Shown: positions 1,147-46,938, counted from the stretch's first letter. The stretch is 64,000 bases of DNA from Dehalococcoidia bacterium (GCA_009692705.1 SHYR01000003.1:5170-69169); one strand, 5' to 3'. Notes: generated by a model from the letters alone, not told the origin. Made by a program: numbers and translations.

Positions 1147-2220
1147 CTAGCTCCAGCCGAGAGCGCGCTCTACTGCCTCCACGTCGGCCGGCGCATCGTG
1201 GCGCACGGCTTCGATCGTGAGCGCGGTGTCGGGGTCCTTAAGGCCGCTGCCGGTGAGCACGCACACGGCGGTGCGCCCGGCGAACCGGGCGCCGGCGCGC
1301 GCCTGCGCGAACAGCCCGGCGACCGACGCGGCCGAGGCGGGCTCGCAGAAGATGCCCTCCTCGCGGGGCAGGCGGCGATAGGCTTCGAGGATCTCGTCGT
1401 CGGTGACCGCGGCGATGCGCCCGCCGGAGGCGTCGCGCGCCTCGATCGCACCCTGCCAGGAGGCGGGGTTGCCGATGCGGATCGCGCTCGCCACCGTCTC
1501 CGGGCGCTCCACCGGCGCGCCGAGCACCAGCGGCGCGGCGCCGGCGGCCTGGAAGCCCCACATCTGCGGGCGCCGCCGCGCGCGCTCCAGCCGGTAGTAC
1601 TGCTCGAACCCCCGCCAGTAGGCCGTGATGTTACCGGCGTTCCCCACCGGGATGCTGAGCACGTCCGGCGCGTCCGCGAGCTCGTCCACGATCTCGAACG
1701 CCGCCGTCTTCTGCCCCTCCAGTCGGTAAGGGTTCACCGAGTTCACGAGCGCGACGTGGTGCCGCTCGGCGAGCGCGCGCGCGATGCGCAGCGCATCGTC
1801 GAAGGAGCCGTCGATATGCACAATCTCCGCACCGTGAGCGATCGCCTGCGCGAGCTTGCCCGCCGCGATGCGCCCCGCCGGCACCAGCACGAACGCGTCC
1901 AGCCCGTGCAGCGCCGCGTACGCCGCCGCCGATGCCGACGTGTTGCCCGTCGACGCGCACAGCACCGCGGTCGCGCCATCCTCCACTGCCTTCGCCACCG
2001 CCACCACCATGCCGCGGTCCTTGAACGAGCCGGTGGGGTTCATGAAGTCGAGCTTGAAGTAGAGTGCGTCCAGCCCCAGCTCCGGCCCCAGCACGCGCGA
2101 CCGCACCAGCGGCGTGTCGCCCTCGCCGAGCGAGAGCCGCGGCGTGCGCTCGCTCAGCGGCAGCAGATCCGCGTAGCGCTCCAGGATCGACCGCGGCACA
2201 TCGCGCTTCCCCGCCGTCAT
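1147..2220 (-). CDS. thrC: Threonine synthase (short form)
   Basis: 357 aa. PLP-lysine motif [10 protein letters not shown], then [15 protein letters not shown] and [13 protein letters not shown]. It lies in an operon with hom. Confidence 0.9.
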
Positions 2221-3281
2221 CGCGCTGCCCCTGCCGCCGGCTGATCCGGCGGCTGCTCGATGCGCTCCGCGAAGCGCACCAGCAGCTCGCGCGCGCGCCG
2301 CCCGCTGCGCTCGATCTCGTCCACCTCGCGGCGTCCGGCCTCCAGTTCCACCTCGGTCCAGCGCCGAAACTGCTCCAGCACCAGCAGCCGCTGCGCCTCC
2401 AGCGCCTCGGCGAGCGCGCGCAGGCGGTTCTGCGCGGCGCCGGCCTGCTGGTGCAGCATCAGGCGCTCATCGACGCTCGACGTCAGATCGCGGCGCAGTT
2501 GCTCCAGCGTCTCCTCCACCGCGGCGAACCGCTGCTCCACACGCTGGCGCGTCGCGCGCTGCTGCTCCACCAGCTCGCGCAACTCCCCCTCCACCGTGCG
2601 CGCCGCGCGCAACGCCGCCACGGCGTCTTCCAACCGCCGGTGCTCCTCCGCCGCACCGCGCACGCACACAGCGAGGTCCGCGACCGCGGAACGCAGCTCC
2701 GGCAGCTGGGCGAGCGCGCGCGCGCGCTCGTCGCGCGTCGCCCGCGCCGCGTCGCGCTCAGCGCCCCCGGCCTCCTCCAGCGCCTCGACGCGCGCCACAA
2801 GCGACCGCACCTCGAGCCCCTGCGCCCCGAGATCAGTGGCGAGCCGGCGCCGCTGCTCGCCGTCGGAGGCGAGATGCTGCTCGGCCGCCGCCAGCCACGC
2901 GGCGAGCTGTTCCACGCCGCGCTCGGCCGCCGCCAGCTGCTCGTGCTCGGCCTGCGCGCGGCGGTCGCCGACGGCGGCGTGCTGGCGCCGCAGCTCCGCC
3001 TCCGCCTCGCTGCGCTCTGCGAGCGCGCCCAGCTCCTGCCTCAACTCGCGCGCGGCGTCCTGCCCCGCCTCGTGCCGGCGCGTGCGCCCGTCCAGCAGCG
3101 CCAGCGACTCATGCAACCGCACCAGCTCGGCCTGCTGGGCGGCAAGCGCCGCCTGCACGCGGGCCAGCTCGTGCGTCAGTTCATCCACCCGCGCGCGCGC
3201 GCGTTGCAGCTCGTCGCCGATCCAGCCGCCGCGGGCACGCTCCGCCTCGGCCGCTCCGGCGACAGCCGGCTCGCCGGTCAT
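2217..3281 (-). CDS. Ala/Glu/Arg/Leu-rich coiled-coil protein of unknown function, translationally coupled between hom and thrC
   Basis: Start taken at MTGEPAVAG (ATG 3281, 1 nt after the hom stop). The stop overlaps the thrC start (ATGA at 2217-2220). GC3 is high in this frame. There is no recognisable enzymatic motif, only long heptad-like AELxRL repeats. Confidence 0.55.
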   Translation of the reverse strand: MTGEPAVAGAAEAERARGGWIGDELQRARARVDELTHELARVQAALAAQQAELVRLHESLALLDGRTRRHEAGQDAARELRQELGALAERSEAEAELRRQHAAVGDRRAQAEHEQLAAAERGVEQLAAWLAAAEQHLASDGEQRRRLATDLGAQGLEVRSLVARVEALEEAGGAERDAARATRDERARALAQLPELRSAVADLAVCVRGAAEEHRRLEDAVAALRAARTVEGELRELVEQQRATRQRVEQRFAAVEETLEQLRRDLTSSVDERLMLHQQAGAAQNRLRALAEALEAQRLLVLEQFRRWTEVELEAGRREVDEIERSGRRARELLVRFAERIEQPPDQPAAGAAR

Positions 3282-3282
3282 C

Positions 3283-4587
3283 TCAGCCCGCCATCTGCAG
3301 CACGCTGCCGATCTCCACCACCTCGTCGAGCTCGCGGATCGTGGCGAGCGCGGCGTCCAGACGCCCACCGCGCGCCTTGTGCGTGGTGATCACCAGCTCC
3401 GCCGTGCGTGCATCCTCATCCACCTCGAACTGCACCACCGAGGCGATGCTGATGTCGTTGTCGCCCAGCGCCCCCGCGATCTTCGCCAGCACGCCCGCGC
3501 GGTCCGCGACCGTCACCCGCATGTAGTAGCGCGACTCCTGCTCCGACGGCGGCCGCACGACCGCCTTGCGATAACGGATCGCCTCCAGCGGACCACGACC
3601 GGCGACGACATCGCGCGCCACGTCGAGCACGTCGGCCAGCACCGCGCTGGCGGTCGGCTTCGGCCCGGCGCCCGGGCCCTCGAACAACACGCGGCCGACG
3701 AGGTCGCCCTCCACCTGCACCGCATTCAGCACGCCGTCCACCTTGCCCAGCGGCTCCTCGTAGGCGATGAGCGTCGGGCGCACCGAGACATCGAGCGCGC
3801 CGTCGACCAGCCGCCCACTGGCCAGCAGCTTGATCGTGTAGCCAAGCTCGTCGGCGTAGCGGAAGTCGCGCGCGGAGAGCCCGCTGATCCCCTGCCGCGC
3901 GATATCGTCGGGCGACACCGTGACGTGGAACGCGAGCCCGCAGAGGATCGCCAGCTTATACGCGGCGTCGATGCCCTCGACATCGTCCGTCGGATCCGGT
4001 TCCGCGTAGCCCAGGCGCTGCGCCTCGGCCAGTGCCTCCGCGTAGTCGCTGCCCTCGTAGGTCATCGCCGTGAGCACGTAGTTGGTGGTGCCGTTGATGA
4101 TCGCCGTCACCGCCGTGATCTCATTCGCCAGCAGGTCGCGCCCCAGCGGCCGCACGATCGGGATGCCGCCGCCCACCGACGCCTCGTACAGCAGCCGCAC
4201 GCCGTGCTCCGAGGCGAGCTCGAGCAGCTCGGGGCCGCACTTCGCCATCACCTCCTTGTTCGCCGTCACCACGTGGCGGCCGGAGGCCAGCGCGCGCGCG
4301 ATGTATTCGCGGGCGGGGTGCTCTCCACCCATCAGCTCCACGACGATCTGGGTCCGCTCGTCCTCCAGCACGTCCTCGAAGCGGTCGGTGAGCGCGCCCG
4401 CGGGCGCGCCCGCGCGCGGGCGCGCGCGGGCGCGCACCAGCACGCGCCGCAGCTCCAGCGGCCGGCCCACGCGCGCAGCGTAGCGCTCTGCGCCACGCTG
4501 CAGCGCCGCCAGCACGCCCGCGCCGACGTTGCCGGCGCCCAGCAGCGAGACGCCGATCGGCTCCATCGGCTCGCTCGCTTCGCTCAT
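3283..4587 (-). CDS. hom: Homoserine dehydrogenase with C-terminal ACT domain
   Basis: GVSLLGAGNVGAGV (NAD-binding), VVTANKEVMA, LLYEASVGGGIPI, and an ACT-like tail (YYMRVTVADRAGVLAKIAGALGDNDISI). Start taken at MSEASEP, which overlaps the upstream stop. Confidence 0.9.
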   Translation of the reverse strand: MSEASEPMEPIGVSLLGAGNVGAGVLAALQRGAERYAARVGRPLELRRVLVRARARPRAGAPAGALTDRFEDVLEDERTQIVVELMGGEHPAREYIARALASGRHVVTANKEVMAKCGPELLELASEHGVRLLYEASVGGGIPIVRPLGRDLLANEITAVTAIINGTTNYVLTAMTYEGSDYAEALAEAQRLGYAEPDPTDDVEGIDAAYKLAILCGLAFHVTVSPDDIARQGISGLSARDFRYADELGYTIKLLASGRLVDGALDVSVRPTLIAYEEPLGKVDGVLNAVQVEGDLVGRVLFEGPGAGPKPTASAVLADVLDVARDVVAGRGPLEAIRYRKAVVRPPSEQESRYYMRVTVADRAGVLAKIAGALGDNDISIASVVQFEVDEDARTAELVITTHKARGGRLDAALATIRELDEVVEIGSVLQMAG

Positions 4588-5594
4588 CGCACCTCTCCTG
4601 CCGCCGCACGCAAACGGGCGCGCACGCGCTCCTCGATCCATCCTCGCTCGCCGCCCGAGAGGTTGCTGCGCACGCCCGCCTCCCGCCGCGCCCCCGTCAG
4701 CCAGTCCTGGTACTGGCGCTCCGTGATGCGCGCGATCTGCGGCTCGTCCAACGCACGCGCCTGCTCGCGCCCGTCGACGCGGTAGAGACCGTAGAACGCG
4801 CCGCTGCGCACCAGCGCCGAGAAGCCGCCGACCGCCACCGCATCGAGGCTCTTCGCAGCCTCCTCGTCCAGCAGCATGGCGGGCAGCCAGCCCAGGTCGC
4901 CGCCGCTCGCCGCGGTGGCCGGATCCGGGTTGTGCGCCGCCGCAGCCTGCGCGAAGTCGCCGCCCGCGATCAACTGCTCGCGCACCCGCTGCGCCGTCGC
5001 CTCGTCGGAGAAGCGGATGCGCATCAGCTTTAGCTGCGGCGCCTGCGCGGGCACCTCGGCGCGGAAGCGATCGCGCATGCGCTGCGCGAGCACGCGCGCC
5101 CGCATGATGTCGTCGAACTCCGTGCGCGTCAGCCCGGAGATGTCCAGCGCGCGGCCGATCACCGTCTGCAGGTCGGCCCGCGCGAAGGCTGGATTGCCCG
5201 TGTCGGCCAGCCTGAACAACACCTTCACCGACTGCTCGATGTCGTCCGCGGTCGGCGCGGCGACCAGCGCGGGGGCGCGCTCGCGCAGCGCGACCTCCTC
5301 GGCGAGCCGGTCGAGCGCCGTTTCCGCCGGTGAAGGGCTACCGCCCGCGCTCTCGAAGGCCACCATGTAGGTGGCGCGGCTCGCCACCGCCGCGGCATCG
5401 AAATCGCTACCGCCCACGGTCAGCACATGCGCGTGCGGCGCGCGGTACTGGGTGACGTAGACGCCTGCCCCGATGATGGCTGCCACGGCCGCGAGCAGTG
5501 CGCCAGCGACCCACAGCACCTGCCGCTGGCGTCGTTGCGCCGCCCTGAGAGCCGCCCGTCTCCCCGAAGCCGCGGACTGCGTCCTGCCGGCCAC
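4584..5594 (-). CDS. Membrane-anchored parvulin-type peptidyl-prolyl isomerase (PpiC/SurA-like)
   Basis: N-terminal TM helix (VLWVAGALLAAVAAIIGAGVYV). C-terminal PpiC-like block: MRIRFSDEATAQRVREQLIAGGDFAQAAAAHNPDPATAASGGDLGWL. Confidence 0.7.
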   Translation of the reverse strand: MAGRTQSAASGRRAALRAAQRRQRQVLWVAGALLAAVAAIIGAGVYVTQYRAPHAHVLTVGGSDFDAAAVASRATYMVAFESAGGSPSPAETALDRLAEEVALRERAPALVAAPTADDIEQSVKVLFRLADTGNPAFARADLQTVIGRALDISGLTRTEFDDIMRARVLAQRMRDRFRAEVPAQAPQLKLMRIRFSDEATAQRVREQLIAGGDFAQAAAAHNPDPATAASGGDLGWLPAMLLDEEAAKSLDAVAVGGFSALVRSGAFYGLYRVDGREQARALDEPQIARITERQYQDWLTGARREAGVRSNLSGGERGWIEERVRARLRAAAGEVR

Positions 5595-37157: not shown

Positions 37158-37589
37158 TCATGCCAGCTCCAGCGGCTCTTCCTCGATCGTGCCGCCGCGC
37201 CGGATCAGGAAGGCGCGCACCGCCGGCGGCTCCGCCGCCAGCGAGACAATGATGTAGCAGGTCTGCGGGTACATCGGCTCCTGCTCGACCGCGCCCGGCG
37301 GCCAGAAGGCCATGCGCACATCCGTGGGCGAGGGCCTCGCCTCCGAAGCGACGTGCGAGTGGTAGATCGCGAACAGCGTCTCGCCGGTGCGGTCGCGCTG
37401 CTGCTCGAGTTGCAGCATGCGGCGCGGGTCCATCTCGTAGCGATACGGGCTGGCTGCAGCGTTGGTCACGCGGTACACCGCCGCCGCCGCGCCGCCGACC
37501 GCGTGGATCATGCCGCAGGCCTCGTTGGGGAGATCCGCGCGCGCGTGCGCGATCACCTCGTCCACGAAGGCGCGGGGGATGCGCGGCAT
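37158..37589 (-). CDS. JAMM/MPN+ metalloprotease (Mec/CysO-hydrolase type)
   Basis: NEACG (the catalytic Glu region) and the JAMM motif HSHVASEARPSPTD. 143 aa, single domain. Confidence 0.85.
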   Translation of the reverse strand: MPRIPRAFVDEVIAHARADLPNEACGMIHAVGGAAAAVYRVTNAAASPYRYEMDPRRMLQLEQQRDRTGETLFAIYHSHVASEARPSPTDVRMAFWPPGAVEQEPMYPQTCYIIVSLAAEPPAVRAFLIRRGGTIEEEPLELA

Positions 37590-37595
37590 GTGGCC

Positions 37596-38042
37596 TCAGA
37601 GCTCCCACGCCTGCGTCTCGCCGTCGTCGATGCACGCCCCCGCCGCCTGCCACATCTGCAGGAAGGCGGCGCTGAACGGCTCGGCCGCGAGGTGCTCGAT
37701 CCAGTGCGGCCACTCCTGCTCCGGCAGGCGCGCCACGAACTCCGCAAACGGCAGGTGCACCGTCCCGTCCGGCGCGATCCCGAGATCCAGCGACCAGCGC
37801 CCCGCCAGCGCCACCCGCCCCACGGTGCGCGTGCGTTGCATCTGCGCGCCGCGTTCGCGGTAGCGTCGCAGCACCGCGACCCGGAACCGCAGCTGCAGCC
37901 GCCCCGGCTCGCGTGCGGCGAGCGCGCCCGCCAGCAGCGTGCGCTGCTGCGCCGCCGCCGGCGCGATCTCGGACGGCTCGGCTAGACCGGTCACGCGCCT
38001 GGCTGCCCTGCTACCGCCCGCTGCCGGCTGCGACGGCGGCAC
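37596..38042 (-). CDS. Hypothetical protein (about 148 aa) between rhodanese and JAMM protease
   Basis: GC3-rich minus-strand ORF. The stop lies 6 nt before the JAMM start and the start is uncertain. No motif recognised (Trp-rich C-terminus EQEWPHWIEHL...FLQMWQAAGACIDDGETQAWEL). Confidence 0.5.
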   Translation of the reverse strand: MPPSQPAAGGSRAARRVTGLAEPSEIAPAAAQQRTLLAGALAAREPGRLQLRFRVAVLRRYRERGAQMQRTRTVGRVALAGRWSLDLGIAPDGTVHLPFAEFVARLPEQEWPHWIEHLAAEPFSAAFLQMWQAAGACIDDGETQAWEL

Positions 38043-38054
38043 CTGGCGGATCGC

Positions 38055-38879
38055 TTACTTCTCGATCGGGACATCGACCAGCGAACCGTACTCGGTCCAC
38101 GAGCCATCGTAGTTCCGGACATCCTTGAACCCCAGCAGGTGCCGCAGCACAAACCAGGTGTGCGAGGAGCGTTCGCCGATGCGGCAGTAGGCGATCACGG
38201 GCTCGCCGTCCTTGAGGCCCGCGGCGCCGTACAGCGCCCTCAGCTCCGCGGGCGACTTGAACGTGCCGTCCTCGTTCACGGCGCGCGCCCACGGCACACT
38301 CAGCGCGCGCGGGATGTGCCCGCCGCGCTGCGCCGTCTCGCTCATGCCAGGCGGGGCGATCACCTCGCCGCTGAACTCGGCCGGGCTCCGCACGTCGACC
38401 AGCTGCACGCCGCCTTGCGCAACCACCTTCAGCACATCGTCGCGGCGCGCGCGCACCGCCCGGTCGGCATCCTTGGCCCGGTAGCTGGTGCGCCGCGGGT
38501 GGGATTCCTCCTTCGTCACCGGACGACCGTCGGCAAGCCACTTCGCCCGTCCGCCGTCCATCAGCGAGGCCTGCGCGTGTCCGTACAACTCGAGCACCCA
38601 CAGCGCGTAGGCGGCGAACCAGTTGCTGTTGTCGCCGTAGAGCACGACGTGGGTATCGCTGGCGACCCCGGAGGCGCTTGCCAGCTCCTCCAGCGCCTGC
38701 TTCGTCATGACATCGCGCCGCACCGGATCCTGCAGCTGGGTACTCCAGTTCCAACCGGCCGCGCCCCGGATGTGCCCCTCGGCGTAGGCCGCGGTGTCCA
38801 CGTCCACCTCCACGAGGCGCACGTTGGCGTCGTTGCCGTGCTCGGCCACCCACTGGCAGGTCACAAGCTTCTCCACCAT
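38055..38879 (-). CDS. Two-domain rhodanese sulfurtransferase (thiosulfate/3-mercaptopyruvate type)
   Basis: Start at MVEKLVTCQWV with GGGAGGG upstream. HIRGAAGWNW in domain 1 and the active-site loop YCRIGERSSHTWF in domain 2. Confidence 0.85.
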   Translation of the reverse strand: MVEKLVTCQWVAEHGNDANVRLVEVDVDTAAYAEGHIRGAAGWNWSTQLQDPVRRDVMTKQALEELASASGVASDTHVVLYGDNSNWFAAYALWVLELYGHAQASLMDGGRAKWLADGRPVTKEESHPRRTSYRAKDADRAVRARRDDVLKVVAQGGVQLVDVRSPAEFSGEVIAPPGMSETAQRGGHIPRALSVPWARAVNEDGTFKSPAELRALYGAAGLKDGEPVIAYCRIGERSSHTWFVLRHLLGFKDVRNYDGSWTEYGSLVDVPIEK

Positions 38880-39249
38880 CACCCTCCCCTGGGGCCCCTG
38901 CCCGGCGCTCAGCGCGCGCCGCACCGCCTGGCAAGCGCCTGCGGACGTTCGGCGCCCCGTCGATGATCGGATGTGCGGCTGCGACACGCCGCCGCCTGAA
39001 GGTACCACCGGAAAGTTTCACTTGCTCGCGTGCTATGCGACACCTGCGGCCAGCCAATCATCGGCGACGGCTTCGAGCTGCCATTGCTGCCCGGCACGCT
39101 GGTGGCGGATCGGGGCTCCTCCTTCCGCCGCCCCATCTCGGTCACCGCGAGCGTGATCTCCGTCGTCCTCTGCGTGGCCTGTGGCGGGCGCCTGATCGCC
39201 ATCCTGCATCACAAGCTACAAGCCCTGCCCCGCCTGCGAGGTGGCCCCG

Positions 39250-39350: not shown

Positions 39351-40286
39351 CTACCACCAGAGCTTCGCGCTCACGGCCTCTGCGATCTCGTCGTAGTCGC
39401 GGGTCCACAGCCCAGTCGACAGGTACTTCCAGCCACCGTCCGCCAGCAGGCACACGATTTGCCCCTGCTCCATGCGCTCCGCGACCTTCTGTGCCGCTCG
39501 CACCACGGCCCCGCTCGAGATGCCAGCGAAGATGCCGGTGCGGCGCGCCAGCTCCTTGGTGGCGCGGAACGAGCTGGCGGAGTCCACGACGATGCGCCCG
39601 TCCAGCACCGACTCATCGAACACCGGCGGGATGTAGCCCTCTTCCAGGCTGCGCAGTCCCTGCACGAGGTCACCGGGGTGCGGTGCGGCGGCCACGATGC
39701 GCACGCCGGGGCGGTACTGCTTCAGCCGCCGCCCGACGCCGGTGAGCGTGCCGCCGGTGCCCAGGCCCGCCACGAAGACGTCGATCTCAGGCACGTCCGC
39801 GATGATCTCGGGCGCGGTGGTCTCGTAGTGCGCGCGCGGATTCTGCTCGTTCTCATACTGAAACGGCATGAACCAGTCAGGGTGCTCCGCGTGAAGGCGC
39901 TGCGCCATCGCCACCGCGCCGTTGGTGCCCAGCTCGCCGGGCGAGTAGATGATCTCCGCACCGAAGGCGCGCAGCAGCTCCGAGCGCTCGGCGCTCACGG
40001 CGTCTGGCATCACCACCGTCACCGGGTAGCCGCGCAGCTGACCGATCAGCGCCAGCGAGATGCCGGTGTTGCCGGAGGTCGGCTCCAGGATGCGCTGCCC
40101 GGGCCGCAGCCGGCCGCTACGCTCCCCCTCCGCGATCATGAACTTGGCAATGCGGTCCTTCACCGAGCCGGTGGGGTTCTGCCCCTCGAGCTTCGCGAAC
40201 AGCCGCACCGCGGGCTTCGGCGAGAGCACGGAGATCTCCACCACCGGCGTGTTGCCCACCAGGTCCAGCAGGCTCGCGTAGCGCAT
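39351..40286 (-). CDS. cysM: CysM-type cysteine synthase (candidate CysO-thiocarboxylate-dependent O-phosphoserine sulfhydrylase)
   Basis: NPTGSVKDRIA (PLP-Lys), EPTSGNTGISLA and GLGTGGTLTG. It lies immediately downstream of a GG-terminated sulfur carrier. Confidence 0.85.
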   Translation of the reverse strand: MRYASLLDLVGNTPVVEISVLSPKPAVRLFAKLEGQNPTGSVKDRIAKFMIAEGERSGRLRPGQRILEPTSGNTGISLALIGQLRGYPVTVVMPDAVSAERSELLRAFGAEIIYSPGELGTNGAVAMAQRLHAEHPDWFMPFQYENEQNPRAHYETTAPEIIADVPEIDVFVAGLGTGGTLTGVGRRLKQYRPGVRIVAAAPHPGDLVQGLRSLEEGYIPPVFDESVLDGRIVVDSASSFRATKELARRTGIFAGISSGAVVRAAQKVAERMEQGQIVCLLADGGWKYLSTGLWTRDYDEIAEAVSAKLWW

Positions 40287-40303: not shown

Positions 40304-40579
40304 CTAGCCGCCGGCCAGCGCGGGGAGGATGGAGACGGCGTCGCCGTCCTTGAGCGCCGTGCCGCGGCCGCCCAGGTAGCGGATGTCCTCGTCGTTAAGG
40401 TAGATGTTCACGAAGCGGTGCAGCTCGCCGGCTTCGTCTTCCAGCTGGCGGCGAAACCCCGGATAGCGGCGATCGATGTTCGCGATCAGCTCGGCGATCG
40501 TGCGGCCCTCCGCCTCGAACGACTTCTGGCCGTTGACGGCCTTCTGGATCACCGACGTGACGTGTACCTGCACCGGCAA
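40304..40579 (-). CDS. cysO: MoaD/ThiS-family sulfur-carrier protein ending in Gly-Gly (CysO-like)
   Basis: 91 aa. ...RFVNIYLNDEDIRYLGGRGTALKDGDAVSILPALAGG-stop. Confidence 0.85.
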   Translation of the reverse strand: MPVQVHVTSVIQKAVNGQKSFEAEGRTIAELIANIDRRYPGFRRQLEDEAGELHRFVNIYLNDEDIRYLGGRGTALKDGDAVSILPALAGG

Positions 40580-40649: not shown

Positions 40650-41783
40650 TCAGTGGCGAGCGGCGATCGCGGCGGCCTCTTCCGCCAGCGGCGGCGTGCC
40701 GCAGAACTGGTCGTAGTCGATCAACTCGGTAACCGTCGGGTGCTCGCCGCACAGCGGGCAGCGCGGATCACGCCGCAGCTTCATCGTGCGGAACTCCATC
40801 GTCAGCGCGTCGACCAGCAGTAGCCGCCCGACCAGCGACTGGCCGATGCCGAGGATCTGCTTGAACACCTCGGTTGCCTGGATCGAGCCCACAATGCCGG
40901 TGATCGAGCCCAGCACGCCCGCTTCCGCGCACGACGGCACCAGTCCCGGCGGTGGCGGCGATGGGTAGAGGCAGCGGTAGCAGCCGCCGCCCGGCTTAAA
41001 GACCGTGGCCTGGCCGTCGAACAGCAGGATCGACCCGTCCACCAGCGTTTTGCCCAGCAGGTAGCAGGCGTCGTTCACCAGGTAGCGGGTGGCGAAGTTG
41101 TCGGCGCCGTTCACCACGATGTCGTAATCGCGGATAATCTCCATCGCGTTATCGGAGGTCAGCGGGGCGCCGTGCGGACGCACCGTGACATGCGGGTTGT
41201 AGGCCGCCAGCTTCTCCTGCGCCGAGAGCAGCTTCGACTTGCCGATGTCCGGCGTCTGGTGCAGCAGTTGCCGCTGCAGGTTCGAGAGCTCGACGATGTC
41301 GAACTCCGCGATCCCCACCGTGCCGACGCCCGCCAGCGCCAGGTAGATCGCCACCGGCGAGCCGAGCCCGCCCGCGCCCACCACCAGCACCTTCGCGTTG
41401 CGCAGCTTGCGCTGCCCGCTCGGGCCCACCGGCCCCATGATGATGTGCCGCGAGTAGCGCATCACCTCGTCCGGCGTCATCGCCACCGAGGCGGCGCCGC
41501 CGTCCGCTGCGCCGCCCGCCAGCGCCGGGATGACCGCGATCTGGTCCCCGTCTGCCAGCGCCGTCTCGACCCCCTCCAGCTCGTGGATCTCGCGGTTGTT
41601 GACGTAGATGCTGATGTGCTGCGGCACCCGCCGCGCACCGTCGTAGACCAGCATCTCGAAGCCGGGGTAGCGCGCGGTCAGCGCCTCCAGCACCTCGGCC
41701 ACGCTGCCACCCTCCACGCTCACGTAGTCGTGATCGTGGGTCAGCCGCCGCCACGGCGAGGGGATGTACACGCTCACGGTCAT
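40650..41783 (-). CDS. Fusion of an N-terminal MoaD/ThiS-like beta-grasp domain (internal ...IPALAGG) to a ThiF/MoeB/MoeZ-type E1 adenylyltransferase
   Basis: Residues 1-91 parallel CysO (ISIYVNNREIHELEGVETALADGDQIAVIPALAGG). The linker is AADGGAASVA. The E1 core has RYSRHI, VLVVGAGGLGSP, CYRCLYP...SCAEAGVLG...CPLCG. There is no C-terminal rhodanese domain. Confidence 0.85.
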   Translation of the reverse strand: MTVSVYIPSPWRRLTHDHDYVSVEGGSVAEVLEALTARYPGFEMLVYDGARRVPQHISIYVNNREIHELEGVETALADGDQIAVIPALAGGAADGGAASVAMTPDEVMRYSRHIIMGPVGPSGQRKLRNAKVLVVGAGGLGSPVAIYLALAGVGTVGIAEFDIVELSNLQRQLLHQTPDIGKSKLLSAQEKLAAYNPHVTVRPHGAPLTSDNAMEIIRDYDIVVNGADNFATRYLVNDACYLLGKTLVDGSILLFDGQATVFKPGGGCYRCLYPSPPPPGLVPSCAEAGVLGSITGIVGSIQATEVFKQILGIGQSLVGRLLLVDALTMEFRTMKLRRDPRCPLCGEHPTVTELIDYDQFCGTPPLAEEAAAIAARH

Positions 41784-41841: not shown

Positions 41842-42789
41842 TCACAGCGGCACGCTCAAGTAGCGCTCGCCGGTGTCGCAGAGCATCGTCACCACGCGCT
41901 TGCCCGCCCCGAGCTGGCGCGCGACCTGGAGCGAGGCCCAGACGTTGGCTCCCGAGGAGATGCCGACCAGCAGCCCCTCCTCGCGCGCCAGCCGCTTCGT
42001 CATCGCGAACGCGTCCTCGTCCCGCACCGCCATCACCTCGTCGTAGATCGCGGTGTTGAGCACGCTTGGCACGAACGACGCGCCGATGCCCTGGATGCCG
42101 TGCACGCCGGCGCGGCCGCCCTGCAGCACCGGCGCCCGCGCCGGTTCCACCGCCACCACGCGCGCGTGCACCCCGGCGTCGCGCAGCACCTCGCCGACGC
42201 CGGTGATCGTGCCGCCGGTGCCGACGCCGGCCACGAAGGCGTCCAGCTGCCCGCCGGTGGCCTCCAGGATCTCGGGGCCGGTGGTGCGTCGGTGGATCTC
42301 CGGGTTCGCCTGGTTGTCGAACTGCTGCGGCATGAAGTAGCCATGGCGCTCCTGCAGCTCCCGCGCCGCGTACACCGCGCCGGTCATGCCCTCGATCGCC
42401 GGCGTGAGCACCAGCTCGGCGCCCAGCCGCTCCAGCAGCCGCCGTCGCTCCACGCTCATGTCCTCCGGCATCGTCAGCACCAGCCGGTAGCCCTTGCGCG
42501 CGCATACCACCGCCAGCCCGACCCCGGTGTTGCCGGACGTGGGCTCCACCAGCGTGTCGCCGTGGTGGATGCGGCCTTCACGCTCCGCCGCCTCCACCAT
42601 GCTCAGCGCGATGCGATCCTTCACCGAGCCGCCGGGGTTGCGCGCCTCCACCTTGCCCAGGATCTCCGCCACGCCCTCCGGCGCGATGCGCGCCAGCCGC
42701 ACGAGCGGGGTCGCGCCGATCAGCTCCAGCACGGAGCCGGCGATCAGGGGTTGGCCGCGCAGGGTGGCAGGCATCGGCGCCTCCGCCAT
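41842..42789 (-). CDS. cysK: O-acetylserine sulfhydrylase (cysteine synthase A)
   Basis: NPGGSVKDRIALSM, EPTSGNTGVGLA, GVGTGGTITG, GIQGIGA and SSGAN. Confidence 0.9.
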   Translation of the reverse strand: MAEAPMPATLRGQPLIAGSVLELIGATPLVRLARIAPEGVAEILGKVEARNPGGSVKDRIALSMVEAAEREGRIHHGDTLVEPTSGNTGVGLAVVCARKGYRLVLTMPEDMSVERRRLLERLGAELVLTPAIEGMTGAVYAARELQERHGYFMPQQFDNQANPEIHRRTTGPEILEATGGQLDAFVAGVGTGGTITGVGEVLRDAGVHARVVAVEPARAPVLQGGRAGVHGIQGIGASFVPSVLNTAIYDEVMAVRDEDAFAMTKRLAREEGLLVGISSGANVWASLQVARQLGAGKRVVTMLCDTGERYLSVPL

Positions 42790-42796
42790 CGTGATC

Positions 42797-43258
42797 TCAG
42801 ATCTTGTAGTGGGGCGCGGCGGCCATCACCCGCTCGGCCCGCTCGCGCTCGCGCTCGCGCTCCGTGAGGTCGGCCAGCGAGATCGCGGCCAAGCGCCGGC
42901 GCATCTCGTCGAAGATCTCGCGCCACACCCACTGCTGCCCGCAGAGCGGGTCGTGCGCGTCGTCCGCTGGGTCGTCGGAGAGGCAGCCCAGCGGCGCCAG
43001 CGAGCCCTCGAGGCTCTCCAGCACGTGCAGCAGGCAGATCTCGGCGGGTGGCCTCGCCAGCTCGTGCCCGCCGCCCGGGCCCCGCGTGCTGCGGATGAAC
43101 CCGTCTCGCCGCAGCTGTGCCAGCAGGTGGTCCAGGTACGACTCCGGAATCTGCCGCCGGTGCGCGATGTCGGCCCGCTGCACCGGGCCTTCGCCCTCGT
43201 GCAGGGCGAGCTCGATCAGCGCGCGCACACCATAGTCCCCCTTGGTGCTGATTTTCAC
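42797..43258 (-). CDS. Rrf2-family transcriptional regulator (CymR/IscR-like)
   Basis: MKISTKGDYGVRALIELAL..., IPESYLDHLLAQLRRDGFIRSTRGPGGG. It is the first gene of the cysK operon. A TACAAT -10-like hexamer lies at 43309-43314 (minus strand). Confidence 0.85.
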   Translation of the reverse strand: MKISTKGDYGVRALIELALHEGEGPVQRADIAHRRQIPESYLDHLLAQLRRDGFIRSTRGPGGGHELARPPAEICLLHVLESLEGSLAPLGCLSDDPADDAHDPLCGQQWVWREIFDEMRRRLAAISLADLTERERERERAERVMAAAPHYKI

Positions 43259-43680: not shown

Positions 43681-43956
43681 CTACCCGCCCGCGACCGCCG
43701 GCACGATCGATACCTCGTCACCTTCGCCGAGCGCGGTCGCCAGCCCCTGCAGGAAGCGCACGTCCTCGCCGTTGACGTAGACGTTGACGAAGCGGCGCAG
43801 CTCCCCGGACGCCTCGCACAGCCGCTCGCGCATCCCCGGGTAGCTGCGCTCCAGCTCGCTCACGAGCTCAGCGATCGAGCCGCTCCCCGCCGCGACCGTC
43901 TCGAGGCCGCTGGTGAGTGTGCGCAGGGGGGTCGGGATCTTGACGGTGACGGCCAT
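43681..43956 (-). CDS. Second free-standing MoaD/ThiS-family sulfur carrier ending in Gly-Gly (MetO/HcyS-like by context)
   Basis: 91 aa. ...RFVNVYVNGEDVRFLQGLATALGEGDEVSIVPAVAGG-stop. It is a paralogue of the carrier at 40304-40579. Confidence 0.8.
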   Translation of the reverse strand: MAVTVKIPTPLRTLTSGLETVAAGSGSIAELVSELERSYPGMRERLCEASGELRRFVNVYVNGEDVRFLQGLATALGEGDEVSIVPAVAGG

Positions 43957-44040
43957 CGCTTGCCCCTGAATACCTGTCTGCTCCGGCTGCTGCGGCTGGC
44001 CTGCTGCGGGCTGCCGGGCCCGCCCCGCGGGCGCGCCATG

Positions 44041-44286
44041 CTATCGGTCGACGATGTCACCGAGCGTGGGGTCGTCGACGCGCACGCCGAGCTCGCGCGC
44101 CCACGCGAGGGCGCGCTCGATCTCGTCGCGCTCGCCCTCCAGCTCCAGCACCACCCAGCCCACGTGCTCGTCCACGTCCGCCATGCGGATGTTAGTCACG
44201 ATCTGGAACTTGTGCCCGAGCTGGTAGATCACCGGCTCCAGGATCAGCCCCGGCTCGAACGTCATGCGCACGCGCTTGCTCACCAT
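44041..44286 (-). CDS. NIL-domain protein (stand-alone)
   Basis: 81 aa. VRMTFEPGLILEPVIYQLGHKFQIVTNIRMADVDEHVGWVVLELEGERDEIERALAWARELGVRV. The fold and motif match the C-terminal domain of MetN. Confidence 0.75.
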   Translation of the reverse strand: MVSKRVRMTFEPGLILEPVIYQLGHKFQIVTNIRMADVDEHVGWVVLELEGERDEIERALAWARELGVRVDDPTLGDIVDR

Positions 44287-44288
44287 CG

Positions 44289-45536
44289 CTACGCTCCCGT
44301 CGTCACGGCCAGGCGCGCGGCCAGCGTGGCCTCGAAGGCGCGCGCGTTCGCCGGCACCCGCAGCGGCGCCTCCAGCCGGTCCACCACCGCCTCCACGGTC
44401 TTCAAGCCGGCGCCGGTAATGAAGGCCACGGTCTCCTCGTCGCGCCGGATGTGGCCGCTCTTCACCATGCGCTTCAGGCAGGCGATCGTCACCCCGCCGG
44501 CGGTCTCCGCGAAGATGCCCTCGGTCTCCGCCAGCAGCTTCACGCCCTCGATGATCTCATCATCGCTCGCCATCTCCGCGCCGCCGTTGGTCTCCTGCAT
44601 CGTCTTCAGCGCATAGTAGCCGTCCGCCGGGTTCCCGATCGCGAGCGAGCGCGCGATCGTGTTCGGCTTCTGCGGCACGAAGTTGAACGTGCCGGCCGCG
44701 TAGGCGGTGGTGATCGGCGAGCAGCCGCTCGCCTGCGCGCCCGACATGCGCGTGTGCGGCTCTTCGATCAGACCGATGCGCGCGAACTCCTTGAAGCCCT
44801 TCCATATCTTGGTGTAGAGCGAGCCCGACGCCATCGGCACCACCACGTGATCCGGCGCGCGCCAGCCGAGCTGTTCGGCGACCTCGAAGGCCAGCGTGCG
44901 CGATCCCTCGGCGTAGTAGGGACGGACGTTGATGTTCACGAACGCCCACTGGCGCGAGCCGGAGAGCTCCGTGCAGAGGCGATTCACGTCGTCGTAGGAG
45001 CCCTCCACCATCACCAGCGTGGGGCGGTAGATCGCGCTGCCCACGACCTTGCCCTGCTCGAGGTCCTGCGGGATGAAGACGTAGGCCTGCATGCCGGCGT
45101 GCGCGGCGTGCGCGGCGACGGCGTTCGCGAGGTTGCCGGTGCTCGCGCAGGCCAGCGCCTCGAAGCCGAACTGGCGAGCGCGCGCGATCGCCACCGCCAC
45201 CACGCGATCCTTGAACGACCACGTGGGGTTCACGGTGTCGTTCTTCAGCCACAGCCGCTCCAGCCCCAGCCGCGCGCCGAGGCGCTCGGCGCGGATCAGG
45301 GGCGTGAACCCGGTCCCGAGATCGACCTTGTACGCAGGATCGCAGGGCAGCAGCTCGGCGTAGCGCCACAGCGTCTTCGGACCGGCGGCGATGTGCTCAC
45401 GCGAGGTCGCGCGCGCGATCGCGTCGTAGTCGTAATCGACCTCCAGCGGGCCGAAGCAGAACTCGCACGAGAAGATCGGCGTCAGCGAGTACTCGCGGCC
45501 GCATTCGCGGCAGCGCAGGGCCCTCTCGTAGGACAT
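44289..45536 (-). CDS. Threonine-synthase-family PLP enzyme with N-terminal zinc ribbon (second ThrC paralogue; candidate sulfur-carrier-dependent homocysteine synthase)
   Basis: Start at MSYERALRCRECGREYSLTPIFSCEFCFGPLEV. PLP-Lys NPTWSFKDRV and ASTGNLANAVAAHAA. It is translationally close-packed with the NIL and ThiS-like genes. Confidence 0.85.
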   Translation of the reverse strand: MSYERALRCRECGREYSLTPIFSCEFCFGPLEVDYDYDAIARATSREHIAAGPKTLWRYAELLPCDPAYKVDLGTGFTPLIRAERLGARLGLERLWLKNDTVNPTWSFKDRVVAVAIARARQFGFEALACASTGNLANAVAAHAAHAGMQAYVFIPQDLEQGKVVGSAIYRPTLVMVEGSYDDVNRLCTELSGSRQWAFVNINVRPYYAEGSRTLAFEVAEQLGWRAPDHVVVPMASGSLYTKIWKGFKEFARIGLIEEPHTRMSGAQASGCSPITTAYAAGTFNFVPQKPNTIARSLAIGNPADGYYALKTMQETNGGAEMASDDEIIEGVKLLAETEGIFAETAGGVTIACLKRMVKSGHIRRDEETVAFITGAGLKTVEAVVDRLEAPLRVPANARAFEATLAARLAVTTGA

Positions 45537-45779
45537 CGGATCACACTCTCTCTGCGCGGGATGGGATGGCGCCGGGGATGCCCGCGCCCACGGCCGCACG
45601 CAGCGGCCGCGACCGGGCTAGCGCATCGCCATGCGGTCCAAGCGGTGGCGTCGTGCGATCACCGCTGTCGCCCTTCGTTCATCGCTGCCGGGCACCGCAA
45701 CCACGCCGCCGCCGGTGCGGAACCGCACCGCCCGCCCCGATGCATTCGAGGCTAGGAGCGCGCCCGCGCTGCTGTCAAC

Positions 45780-46052
45780 TCAACTGCGCGCGACCGCCGC
45801 CGCCAGCGCGCGCCGCAACGCAGCGAGGTCGAGCGGGGCGACCGCCAGCTCGCGGCCCTCCACCGCCACCACGGGCACGCGCTCGCCGAAGCGGCGCTCC
45901 AGCTCCGCATCGCCCTCCACGTTCACCTCGCGCAGCTCGAAGGCCAGCGCCGGGCGCAGCGCGCGCAGCGCCTCACCCGCCTGCTCGCAGAGGTGGCAGC
46001 CGGGACGCCAGTAGAGTGTGACGGTGGAGCCCGCGGGCCTGCGCTCAGCCAC
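45780..46052 (-). CDS. Glutaredoxin-like small thiol-disulfide protein (CxxC)
   Basis: VTLYWRPGCHLCEQAGEAL...RVPVVAVEGRE. The GTG start overlaps the lgt stop. Confidence 0.7.
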   Translation of the reverse strand: MAERRPAGSTVTLYWRPGCHLCEQAGEALRALRPALAFELREVNVEGDAELERRFGERVPVVAVEGRELAVAPLDLAALRRALAAAVARS

Positions 46053-46938
46053 GGCGGCGGCGCTCCGCGCGCGTGCCCCGCCGCACCGGGATGCGCCCCG
46101 GCGGCGCGCCGGGCGCATCCGCCAGCGGCGGCCGCGTGGCGAAGTACCAGGCGCCGGGGATCAGCGCGACGAGCACCAGCAGCGAGACCAACTGCGGCAC
46201 GCGTAGCCCCAGCACCTCCGAAGAATCGACGCGCAGATACGTGAGGAAGAAGCGCATCACGGCGTAGCCGCCGAGGTAGAAGCAGAAGGTGAGGCCGGGG
46301 CGCCGCCGCAGTGGCCCGAAGAACAGCCAGAACATCACGCCGAGGATTACGAGGTCGCCGAGCAGCTCGTAGGTGGTGGCCGGGTGGTGCGGGCCCACCG
46401 TCACCGAGTACGCGAAGGCCGGGGACTGCGGGTCGGTGTAGATCACGCCCCACGGCAAGTTCGTGGCGCGCGCGAGATGCTCGCCGTTGACCAGGTCGCC
46501 GATGCGTCCGATCGCCTGCCCGAGGATCAGCCCGAAACCGCCGGCGTCCAGCCCGCGCGCGATCGGGTAGCGGCGCCAGAGCGCAAACGCCAGCCCGCCG
46601 CCCACGCCGCCGAGGATCGCTCCCCAGATCGAAATGCCGCCCTCGGTGAGGACCACGATATCGAACGGGTTGCGGCTGTAGAAGTCCCAGCGCTCGATCA
46701 CGTACAGCAGCCGCGCCCCGACCACCCCACTCGGCACCGCCACCAGCGCGAGCGCGTAGGCGTCATCGTCGTCGTAGCCGCCGGCGCGCGCGATGCGGCG
46801 GCCGAGCTGCACCCCGGCGAGGATGCCGATCGCGGTGAAGAGGCCGTGCCACGTCAGCAGGAAGCCGCCGATGCCGGCGATGTTGGGGTCCCACGGGATC
46901 TCGATCACCAGCATCAGGCCCGGCACGGCGGCCTCCAC
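46045..46938 (-). CDS. lgt: Prolipoprotein diacylglyceryl transferase
   Basis: LTWHGLFTAIGILAG, GARLLYV, GGISIWGAILGG, GRIGDLVNGEH and WGV. Confidence 0.9.
   Translation of the reverse strand: MEAAVPGLMLVIEIPWDPNIAGIGGFLLTWHGLFTAIGILAGVQLGRRIARAGGYDDDDAYALALVAVPSGVVGARLLYVIERWDFYSRNPFDIVVLTEGGISIWGAILGGVGGGLAFALWRRYPIARGLDAGGFGLILGQAIGRIGDLVNGEHLARATNLPWGVIYTDPQSPAFAYSVTVGPHHPATTYELLGDLVILGVMFWLFFGPLRRRPGLTFCFYLGGYAVMRFFLTYLRVDSSEVLGLRVPQLVSLLVLVALIPGAWYFATRPPLADAPGAPPGRIPVRRGTRAERRRRG

Follow-up and report, generated by a model that had tools for sequence, protein, structure and literature searches.

Three adjacent genes on the minus strand of a 64,000-nucleotide stretch of DNA from a Dehalococcoidia bacterium (the whole stretch is referred to below as the window) encode a homologue of threonine synthase (ThrC), a stand-alone NIL-domain protein and a small sulfur carrier of the ThiS/MoaD type. 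The window represents contig C3 of a metagenome-assembled genome (MAG) of 1.18 Mb in 58 contigs, 77% complete, and its nearest relatives are MAGs of Dehalococcoidia/Chloroflexota. In the original prediction, made from the sequence of the window, the trio was regarded as a MetM/MetO-like pathway making homocysteine from O-phosphohomoserine, with an extra NIL component. The trio is very probably a homocysteine synthase operon of the MetM/MetO type, its catalytic function being assigned by analogy with the Streptomyces albulus system, and the NIL-domain protein is a separately encoded homologue of MetN's methionine-binding C2 domain. The observations carrying the assignment of the core are the family placement of the enzyme, synteny, SAM (S-adenosylmethionine) riboswitch control in relatives and the lack of other routes to homocysteine. 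The three genes are as follows:

44289–45536, minus strand: MetM-like putative homocysteine synthase, 415 amino acids (aa), a ThrC-family enzyme of pyridoxal 5'-phosphate (PLP) fold-type II (PALP, 235 bits)
44041–44286, minus strand: stand-alone NIL-domain protein, 81 aa, without cysteine (PF09383, 56 bits against a cut-off of 24)
43681–43956, minus strand: MetO-like ThiS/MoaD carrier, 91 aa, ending in ...PAVAGG followed by the stop codon (PF02597, 64 bits)

A gap of 2 nt (44287–44288) separates the NIL gene from the stop codon of the ThrC-like gene, and one of 84 nt (43957–44040) lies between the carrier and NIL genes. The original prediction was correct to the base in its coordinates and spacings, as well as in the gene order and the Cys4 ribbon of the enzyme.

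The MetM-like enzyme and its carrier

According to the summaries of Hasebe et al. (2024; Appl Environ Microbiol 90:e01247-24) in PMC13759103 and PMC12172450, homocysteine is formed in S. albulus from O-phospho-L-homoserine and the thiocarboxylate of MetO, and the metM gene has a SAM riboswitch upstream and metO adjacent to it. The Streptomyces route named in the original prediction is real.

The gene for the MetM-like enzyme starts with ATG at position 45536 and stops at 44289–44291. A longer open reading frame (ORF) of 436 aa, starting with GTG at 45599, also exists; the ATG is the correct start, because homologues of 415–425 aa align from residue 1. The ATGTC start is kept in the leaders of related loci. 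The N terminus carries a Cys4 zinc ribbon (C9-x2-C12 ... C24-x2-C27, in the sequence MSYERALRCRECG...SCEFCFGPLEV), which is present throughout the MetM-like clade and missing in ThrC proper. The protein passes two threonine synthase models, TIGR00260 (284 bits against 167) and NF006050 (304.4 against 303), and these hidden Markov models evidently also cover MetM. The score with the cysteate synthase model was 63 bits against a cut-off of 325, placing the protein outside that family.

An ordinary threonine synthase is encoded elsewhere in the window, together with homoserine dehydrogenase:

1147–2220, minus strand: ordinary threonine synthase thrC, 357 aa (TIGR00260, 301 bits)
3283–4641, minus strand: homoserine dehydrogenase hom with a C-terminal ACT domain (PF00742, 207 bits; PF03447, NAD_binding_3)

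The identification of this pair (1147–4641) in the original prediction thus stands, and a tblastn search of the MAG recovered only two ThrC-family genes, thrC and the MetM-like gene, as had been proposed for the window.

The phylogenetic check suggested at that time separates the two paralogues clearly. Of the 79 sequences in a maximum-likelihood tree, 72 are MetM-like, and a long, strongly supported (99%) branch sets these apart from ThrC, including the ThrC of the window, which groups with ThrC of Nitrospirota. The window enzyme nests among Dehalococcoidia (Chloroflexota). Actinobacteria, including five named Streptomyces, form one subclade, and Chloroflexota, Nitrospirota, Cyanobacteria and others form its sister (99%). 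The enzyme shares 84% identity with its nearest relative, 61–63% with proteins of Nitrospirota, Acidimicrobiia, Aquifex and cyanobacteria, 53–55% over about 400 aa with those of Streptomyces, and 36% with the window's own ThrC. The same two-level split emerged from a class-wide search, in which orthologues were at least 59% identical and the other ThrC paralogues did not exceed 43%. The loops at the PLP site also differ between the clade and ThrC (SFKDRVV versus SFKDRG, P.ASGS versus PVGN, and ETAGG versus EP.SA), and ACASTGNLA is a further motif of the MetM clade. The Streptomyces loci came from a genome scan for DNA encoding AIGNPADG, a motif specific to the clade; each of the 120 matches fell inside a MetM-like gene. 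The MetM-like clade is single-copy and widely distributed, like a core biosynthetic gene. Thousands of its genes are called threonine synthase in public sources, apparently through a systematic misannotation of the clade.

A ThiS carrier ending in Gly-Gly is linked to the MetM-like gene in about 240 of about 260 loci from a dozen phyla. The carrier of the window is close to those encoded behind metM-type genes of Streptomyces, with which it shares the pattern VRIPT.LRT..G...FVNVYVN..DVRF..GL.T....G..VSI.PAVAGG. It is 46% identical to the CysO-like carrier of the same gene cluster, and the two are distinct proteins. The window carrier stops at Gly-Gly, while many homologues have extra residues after it (GGC, GGCHG and others) and therefore need a JAMM protease.

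Some loci depart from the common arrangement. In one Dehalococcoidia clade (L046–L064) MetM and NIL genes occur with no carrier gene within 3 kb. Nine of these loci (L048, L050, L051, L053–L056, L058 and L062) contain, about 4 kb downstream, a ThrC-family paralogue that has diverged strongly (about 130 bits). In seven loci of Thermodesulfovibrionales/Nitrospirota (L125, L130, L138, L142–L144 and L157), an ordinary ThrC gene directly follows the MetM–carrier–NIL genes, and therefore both consumers of O-phosphohomoserine are encoded in one gene string.

Riboswitches, leader and pathway genes

A SAM-I riboswitch (RF00162) was detected 5' of the MetM gene in all 16 named Actinomycetota loci, 13 of them from Streptomyces, and directly 5' of it in all 16 other actinobacterial loci. 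The order SAM-I, enzyme, ThiS-GG carrier was observed in each of the 13 named Streptomyces loci tested. In Chloroflexota, SAM-I precedes the full MetM–NIL–ThiS trio in 12 of the 22 loci tested, among them L005, L006 and L007, whose enzymes are 82–84% identical to that of the window; close relatives with the riboswitch span 79–84% identity. No SAM-I could be detected in the window or in L008, L009, L012, L016–L018, L020, L024 and L030. Comparison of the window leader (45537–45779) with those of L005, L006, L007, L010, L011, L013–L015 and L021 revealed that only a 3' P1-like stretch, GCGATGAACGAAGGGCGAC, is retained in the window, and the aptamer appears to have been lost or to be degenerate in several lineages. 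The MetM gene of Microcystis likewise lacks a SAM riboswitch; the feature is thus not obligatory for the family. Other elements of the leader are:

45580–45778, minus strand: operon leader, from alignments of related leaders
45773–45778 and 45749–45754, minus strand: promoter-like TTGACA and TAGCCT, with an 18-nt spacer
45615–45632, minus strand: conserved 18-nt box ATGGCGATGCGCTAGCCC, which reads as a mini-ORF Met-Ala-Met-Arg-stop
45580–45618, minus strand: GCCCG...CGGGC stem enclosing a covarying hairpin

The box occurs once in the window (0.05 expected by chance) and is found exactly in 23 related Dehalococcoidia loci, with or without the SAM-I aptamer. Across loci the mini-ORF reads Met-Ala/Val-Met-Arg-stop, and the box also forms a 5-bp hairpin. 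Compensatory changes are seen at six pairs of the stem, the stop codon of the mini-ORF overlaps its 5' arm, and no U-tract follows it. The box and stem may act as a leader or attenuator based on methionine codons, or as some other RNA element. No convincing shared RNA structure was found between the promoter and the box in leaders lacking the SAM aptamer, and the fold of the whole leader was no better than that of shuffled sequences (z = +1.4).

The search for genes of methionine biosynthesis covered the MAG and 11 complete genomes of Dehalococcoidia (2.5–3.7 Mb) that carry the same operon. Enzymes of the Cys_Met_Meta_PP family (MetB/Y/Z type) are absent from all of them, with partial matches of 35 bits or less where controls scored hundreds, and so is MetA. 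A MetX-like sequence was present in one of the 11 complete relatives and none in the MAG, and COG1900 (PF01837) is absent from the MAG and 14 related genomes. The absence of metA, metX, metB and metY that the original prediction anticipated is thus borne out in the MAG, and neither the MAG nor the complete relatives contain a complete conventional methionine pathway. The homoserine kinase gene thrB was found on contig C53 of the MAG (199.8 bits) and in all 11 relatives, and a MetH-type homocysteine methyltransferase domain in every genome searched; because of the presence of both, O-phosphohomoserine is made and homocysteine is needed in these organisms. The trio operon is the only recognisable source of homocysteine in these genomes.

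The NIL-domain partner

The occurrence of the NIL partner was scored as a small NIL gene within 3 kb on the same strand at MetM-like loci with enough downstream sequence, fusions being left out and sampling being biased. With this definition it accompanies MetM in Chloroflexota (69 of 72 loci), Nitrospirota (22 of 23), Nitrospinota (2 of 2), Abditibacteriota (2 of 2), Planctomycetota (3 of 4), Omnitrophota (3 of 5) and Elusimicrobiota (1 of 1), with no case among 100 loci of Actinomycetota and seven of Cyanobacteriota. The trio itself recurs in about 70 Chloroflexota loci and, with another gene order, in six further phyla, and therefore the arrangement is not due to chance. The order is enzyme–NIL–carrier in Chloroflexota and enzyme–carrier–NIL, in some cases followed by the gene of an E1-like adenylyltransferase (E1), elsewhere. 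The co-conservation expected in the original prediction was accordingly found, and its "extra NIL component" is real; it is not peculiar to this genome but accompanies MetM across the lineage. In all 13 NIL-bearing genomes searched, exactly one NIL domain is encoded, that of the operon. No mention of a NIL partner of MetM was found in the searchable literature, and the four-component pathway of GapMind 2026 (PMC13759103), comprising MetO, Mec, MoeZ and MetM, omits it. No feature of the C-terminal tail of MetM, in length or sequence, was seen to be linked with NIL.

Four residues (F10, P18, R34 and A36) are identical in all 102 NIL partners, and G43 and G51 in 101 each. Position 32 is Asn in 83 of them and position 38 is Val in 96. 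With a profile of 52 NIL partners, the PDB matches were exclusively C2 domains of MetN (3DHX, E = 5.6e-9), and N32, A36 and V38 aligned with N295, A299 and M301 of Escherichia coli MetN. In MetN, N295 forms a hydrogen bond with L-methionine, and its replacement by Ala abolishes binding, while A299 and M301 belong to the register-shifting strand of the dimer interface (PMC6233128). The AlphaFold2 (AF2) model of the NIL protein has a beta-alpha-beta-beta-alpha-beta fold with a mean confidence (pLDDT) of 87.8. A Foldseek search of the PDB with this model returned MetN C2 domains as the ten best matches, with template modelling (TM) scores of 0.71–0.82, followed by ACT domains. The NIL protein thus shares its Pfam family and fold with the C2 domain of E. 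coli MetNI (3DHW, 3DHX, 3TUZ and 6CVL), superposing on full-length MetNI chains with TM up to 0.82 and a root-mean-square deviation of 0.9–1.5 Å, and the counterparts of N295, A299 and M301 are conserved in it. Unlike the C2 domain, it is a free 81-aa protein and not the C-terminal part of an ATPase, belongs to an operon for biosynthesis instead of transport, and has an invariant Arg at position 34 where MetN has Ile. MetN-type NIL domains are absent from these genomes.

Two roles had been considered for the NIL protein in the original prediction. Methionine sensing is favoured by the similarity to MetN C2 and the methionine-binding Asn. A relay of cysteine persulfide is disfavoured and was rejected, as 89 of the 102 partners, like that of the window, contain no cysteine and none is conserved. 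Substitution of NIL for the SAM riboswitch was also rejected, since both are present in the 12 SAM-I-bearing loci among the 22 of Chloroflexota.

A profile search against 1.84 billion representative proteins gave 1,588 matches, of which the best 150 were inspected. Among these, eight proteins join a carrier, its Gly-Gly and a linker to a NIL domain (P0152, P0160, P0181, P0199, P0218, P0141, P0215 and P0221), and one, P0140, joins JAMM to NIL; the same 150 include tandem NIL–NIL proteins, and P0121 is a further entry among the fusions and tandems. Proteins of these kinds occur in metagenomes. Carrier–NIL fusions are also encoded directly behind MetM-like genes in loci of Nitrospirota (L074, 7247–7777) and Omnitrophota (L132, 5275–5820). 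A candidate fusion of PALP with NIL (P0126) was discounted, its Arg/Gly-rich linker looking like read-through. In the AF2 model of the L074 fusion both domains are confident and the linker around Gly-Gly is disordered (predicted TM score 0.49); the model would fit a cleavable precursor and says nothing on an interface. The data favour a physical association of NIL with the carrier machinery, as the ThiS and JAMM fusions indicate, and the retention of the ligand and dimer features of a methionine sensor.

A different context of NIL was noted in an Acidimicrobiia-like genome (G014), where no NIL gene adjoins the MetM and MetO genes, which have a SAM riboswitch. The one stand-alone NIL gene of this genome (95 aa; in the region 5171–6561 of L317) is located immediately after the gene of a PP-loop ATP pyrophosphatase with an SGGVDS motif, similar to LarE/ThiI, and before that of a 4HBT thioesterase. 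Other sulfur-transfer enzymes may thus have NIL as a partner as well.

The sulfur-carrier gene cluster and the proposed pathway

The trio tops a longer minus-strand cluster of sulfur-carrier genes, preceded by the gene of a glutaredoxin-like protein:

45780–46118, minus strand: glutaredoxin-like protein
42797–43258, minus strand: Rrf2-family regulator, CymR/IscR-like (PF02082, 123 bits)
41842–42789, minus strand: cysteine synthase A, CysK (TIGR01139, 434 bits against a cut-off of 351)
40650–41783, minus strand: E1 of the MoeB/MoeZ/UbaA type with an N-terminal ThiS-like domain (ThiF, 264 bits; ThiS, 46 bits)
40304–40579, minus strand: CysO-like ThiS/MoaD carrier, 91 aa, ending in Gly-Gly (PF02597, 56 bits)
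39351–40286, minus strand: CysM-like cysteine synthase, paired with the CysO-like carrier (TIGR01136, 342 bits; PALP, 239 bits)
38055–39008, minus strand: two-domain rhodanese sulfurtransferase (PF00581, 101 bits, two stretches)
37596–38042, minus strand: ORF of 148 aa with no Pfam family, between the rhodanese and JAMM genes
37158–37589, minus strand: JAMM/Mec-like metalloprotease (PF14464, Prok-JAB, 68.8 bits)

Counterparts of MetO, Mec, MoeZ and MetM are all located within a span of 8.4 kb in this cluster, and the CysO/CysM-like pair lies 3.4 kb downstream of the trio. The Rrf2-family regulator, scoring 95.7 bits with the CymR model and 92.9 bits with that of IscR, both under their cut-offs, stands between the methionine and cysteine halves of the cluster, and this position is kept in relatives. 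No second E1 was recovered from the MAG by tblastn, and the E1 of the cluster, which also passes NF004281 (288 bits against 266), is the likely activator of both carriers. It has no rhodanese domain of its own, and the separately encoded rhodanese is its likely sulfur donor. The N-terminal ThiS-like domain of E1 is complete, ending in ...IPALAGG before an Ala/Gly linker, and this internal Gly-Gly would require cleavage, plausibly by the JAMM protease of the cluster; in several relatives the ThiS-like and E1 parts are separate ORFs. The position of the 148-aa ORF suggests its co-translation with the sulfur-carrier machinery.

In the proposed pathway, homoserine dehydrogenase and the thrB product would provide O-phosphohomoserine, shared with the ordinary ThrC. 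E1 would adenylate the MetO-like carrier at its C-terminal Gly-Gly, and the carrier would then be thiocarboxylated with sulfur relayed by the neighbouring rhodanese. The MetM-like enzyme would exchange the gamma-phosphate of O-phosphohomoserine for the thiocarboxylate sulfur of the carrier, yielding homocysteine, which the MetH-type enzyme could convert to methionine, while the JAMM protease may clear adducts or precursors of the carrier, as Mec does. The NIL protein might dimerise, bind L-methionine or a close metabolite, and feed back on the carrier and enzyme machinery at the protein level. Such a methionine-sensing role in end-product feedback is put forward as a tentative reading, preferred over docking. 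A broader form of this reading, with odds somewhat below even, makes NIL the third, dedicated partner in MetM/MetO-type synthesis of Chloroflexota, Nitrospirota and several other phyla. It would be a free sensor similar to MetN C2, acting on the carrier or its enzymes and not on a transporter, and released by JAMM from a carrier–Gly-Gly–NIL precursor in some lineages.

Similar arrangements are known from several systems. The likeness to S. albulus MetM/MetO lies in a ThrC-homologous enzyme followed by a ThiS/MoaD carrier ending in Gly-Gly, in the presence of E1 and JAMM, and in the SAM-I control of many family members. The window differs in having an 81-aa NIL gene between the enzyme and the carrier, in lacking a SAM-I aptamer, in a carrier that ends in a bare Gly-Gly and thus needs no C-terminal trimming, and in the location of the operon in a joint cysteine/methionine cluster (CysO/CysM/CysK/Rrf2). 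Its E1, unlike MoeZ, carries a ThiS-like domain at the N terminus and lacks a rhodanese domain, and the rhodanese is encoded by a separate gene. Thiocarboxylate-dependent cysteine synthesis is performed by CysO/CysM/Mec/MoeZ in Mycobacterium tuberculosis, and a related system, HcyS/HcyF/HcyD/MetY, is present in Wolinella succinogenes. As in these systems, a protein thiocarboxylate would serve as sulfide donor to a PLP enzyme with the participation of E1 and JAMM; they use CysM or MetY-type enzymes on O-phosphoserine or O-acetylhomoserine and have no NIL partner, whereas the window enzyme is a ThrC homologue predicted to act on O-phosphohomoserine. In methanogens and Desulfovibrio, COG1900 (DUF39, MA1821) is accompanied by a NIL/ferredoxin protein (MA1822), and NIL is thus likewise found beside a non-canonical homocysteine synthase, but that route starts from aspartate semialdehyde and not, as proposed here, from O-phosphohomoserine, no COG1900 gene is present, and the NIL protein of the window has no ferredoxin domain. 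With ThrC (TIGR00260; 6CGQ, 2ZSJ, 1UIM and 2D1F) the enzyme shares PLP fold-type II and its predicted substrate, O-phosphohomoserine, differing by its Cys4 ribbon, altered PLP-site motifs, obligatory carrier linkage and a clade of its own.

Other functions of the trio have to be weighed against homocysteine synthesis. The 415-aa protein passes both TIGR00260 and NF006050, its nearest solved structures are threonine synthases (6CGQ, E = 3e-62), and its relatives carry that name in sources, all of which would agree with a true second threonine synthase of the zinc-ribbon "archaeal type" surrounded by unrelated genes. This is highly improbable, given the separation of the enzyme from ThrC in the tree, the canonical ThrC already present beside hom, the different PLP-site motifs, the linkage to a carrier in most loci and the control of relatives by a SAM riboswitch rather than by threonine; according to GapMind 2026 (PMC13759103), MetM is frequently misannotated in just this way. 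The presence of CysK and a CysO/CysM pair in the same cluster, together with the L046–L064 clade and loci of Acidobacteriota in which no ThiS gene adjoins the enzyme, could instead indicate an O-phosphohomoserine sulfhydrylase using free sulfide, the carrier and NIL protein serving another process such as the CysO/CysM cysteine route or tRNA thiolation. That explanation is improbable, since the operon has a second carrier of its own, which resembles MetO and is less than half identical to the CysO-like one, carrier adjacency is near-universal in the clade, and the characterised system uses the thiocarboxylate of MetO. Recruitment of ThrC-family enzymes to other chemistry, exemplified by cysteate synthase, also makes a different sulfur-containing product conceivable, such as a thio-amino acid destined for a natural product or cofactor. 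The chance of this appears very small in view of the low score with the cysteate synthase model, the SAM riboswitches that tie the operon specifically to methionine, the presence of MetH with no other homocysteine source, and the single-copy, broad, core-gene-like distribution of the clade.

For the NIL protein, the main alternative to sensing is the function of a non-regulatory adaptor or chaperone that docks MetO or holds it for E1, JAMM and MetM, with a carrier–Gly-Gly–NIL precursor cut by JAMM in some lineages; the core pathway would be unaffected. ThiS-family carriers tend to occur fused with their binding partners, MoaD–MoaE being one case. Fusions of ThiS, Gly-Gly and a linker with NIL in at least eight representative clusters and in L074 and L132, the JAMM–NIL fusion, and the ThiS–E1 fusion of the window as an example of a carrier fused to its binder are consistent with such docking. 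It is nevertheless rather unlikely, because the sole characterised relatives of NIL are methionine-binding regulatory domains whose methionine-contacting Asn and interface strand are kept, no confident ThiS:NIL packing was predicted by AF2 in the natural fusion, and the actinobacterial and cyanobacterial systems do without this partner.

Several points weigh against homocysteine synthesis by the trio and against methionine sensing by NIL. The threonine synthase equivalog NF006050 accepts the MetM-like protein, with a margin of about 1 bit, and orthology is anchored on Streptomyces loci of the published layout rather than on the sequence of S. albulus MetM. No Rfam match to a SAM riboswitch was obtained in the window or the leader even at E ≤ 5, and, with an incomplete (77%) MAG, the absence of other homocysteine routes leans on the complete relatives. 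The position of the methionine-binding Asn is occupied by Ser in 17 of the 102 NIL proteins, and AF2 gave no confident packing of the domains in the natural ThiS–NIL fusion. Streptomyces and cyanobacteria run the enzyme–carrier pair without NIL, which is therefore not needed for catalysis.

The core pathway was first described in 2024, and the NIL partner is the new part, a refinement rather than a new system. This partner is kept across at least seven phyla, and the one NIL domain whose function is known, to which it is related, senses methionine. If its proposed role is true, NIL would be a general "methionine-status" module, recruited independently by MetN uptake and by the COG1900 and MetM/MetO routes, and a prokaryotic ubiquitin-like sulfur-carrier system would be under small-molecule control. 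Confirmation would mean that the end product tunes the flux in a protein-thiocarboxylate pathway and that NIL has a unified role in methionine homeostasis.

The assignment of MetM would explain methionine synthesis in Dehalococcoidia and other lineages lacking MetA/X/B/Y/Z and COG1900. Aquifex aeolicus and Acidimicrobium ferrooxidans were listed without any known homocysteine route (Price et al., 2018). A MetM-like gene is present in an Aquifex sp. MAG (L082) and in many Acidimicrobiia loci (L090–L116), accompanied in the latter by a SAM-I riboswitch and a carrier gene, and MetM-like genes in both groups would close this gap.

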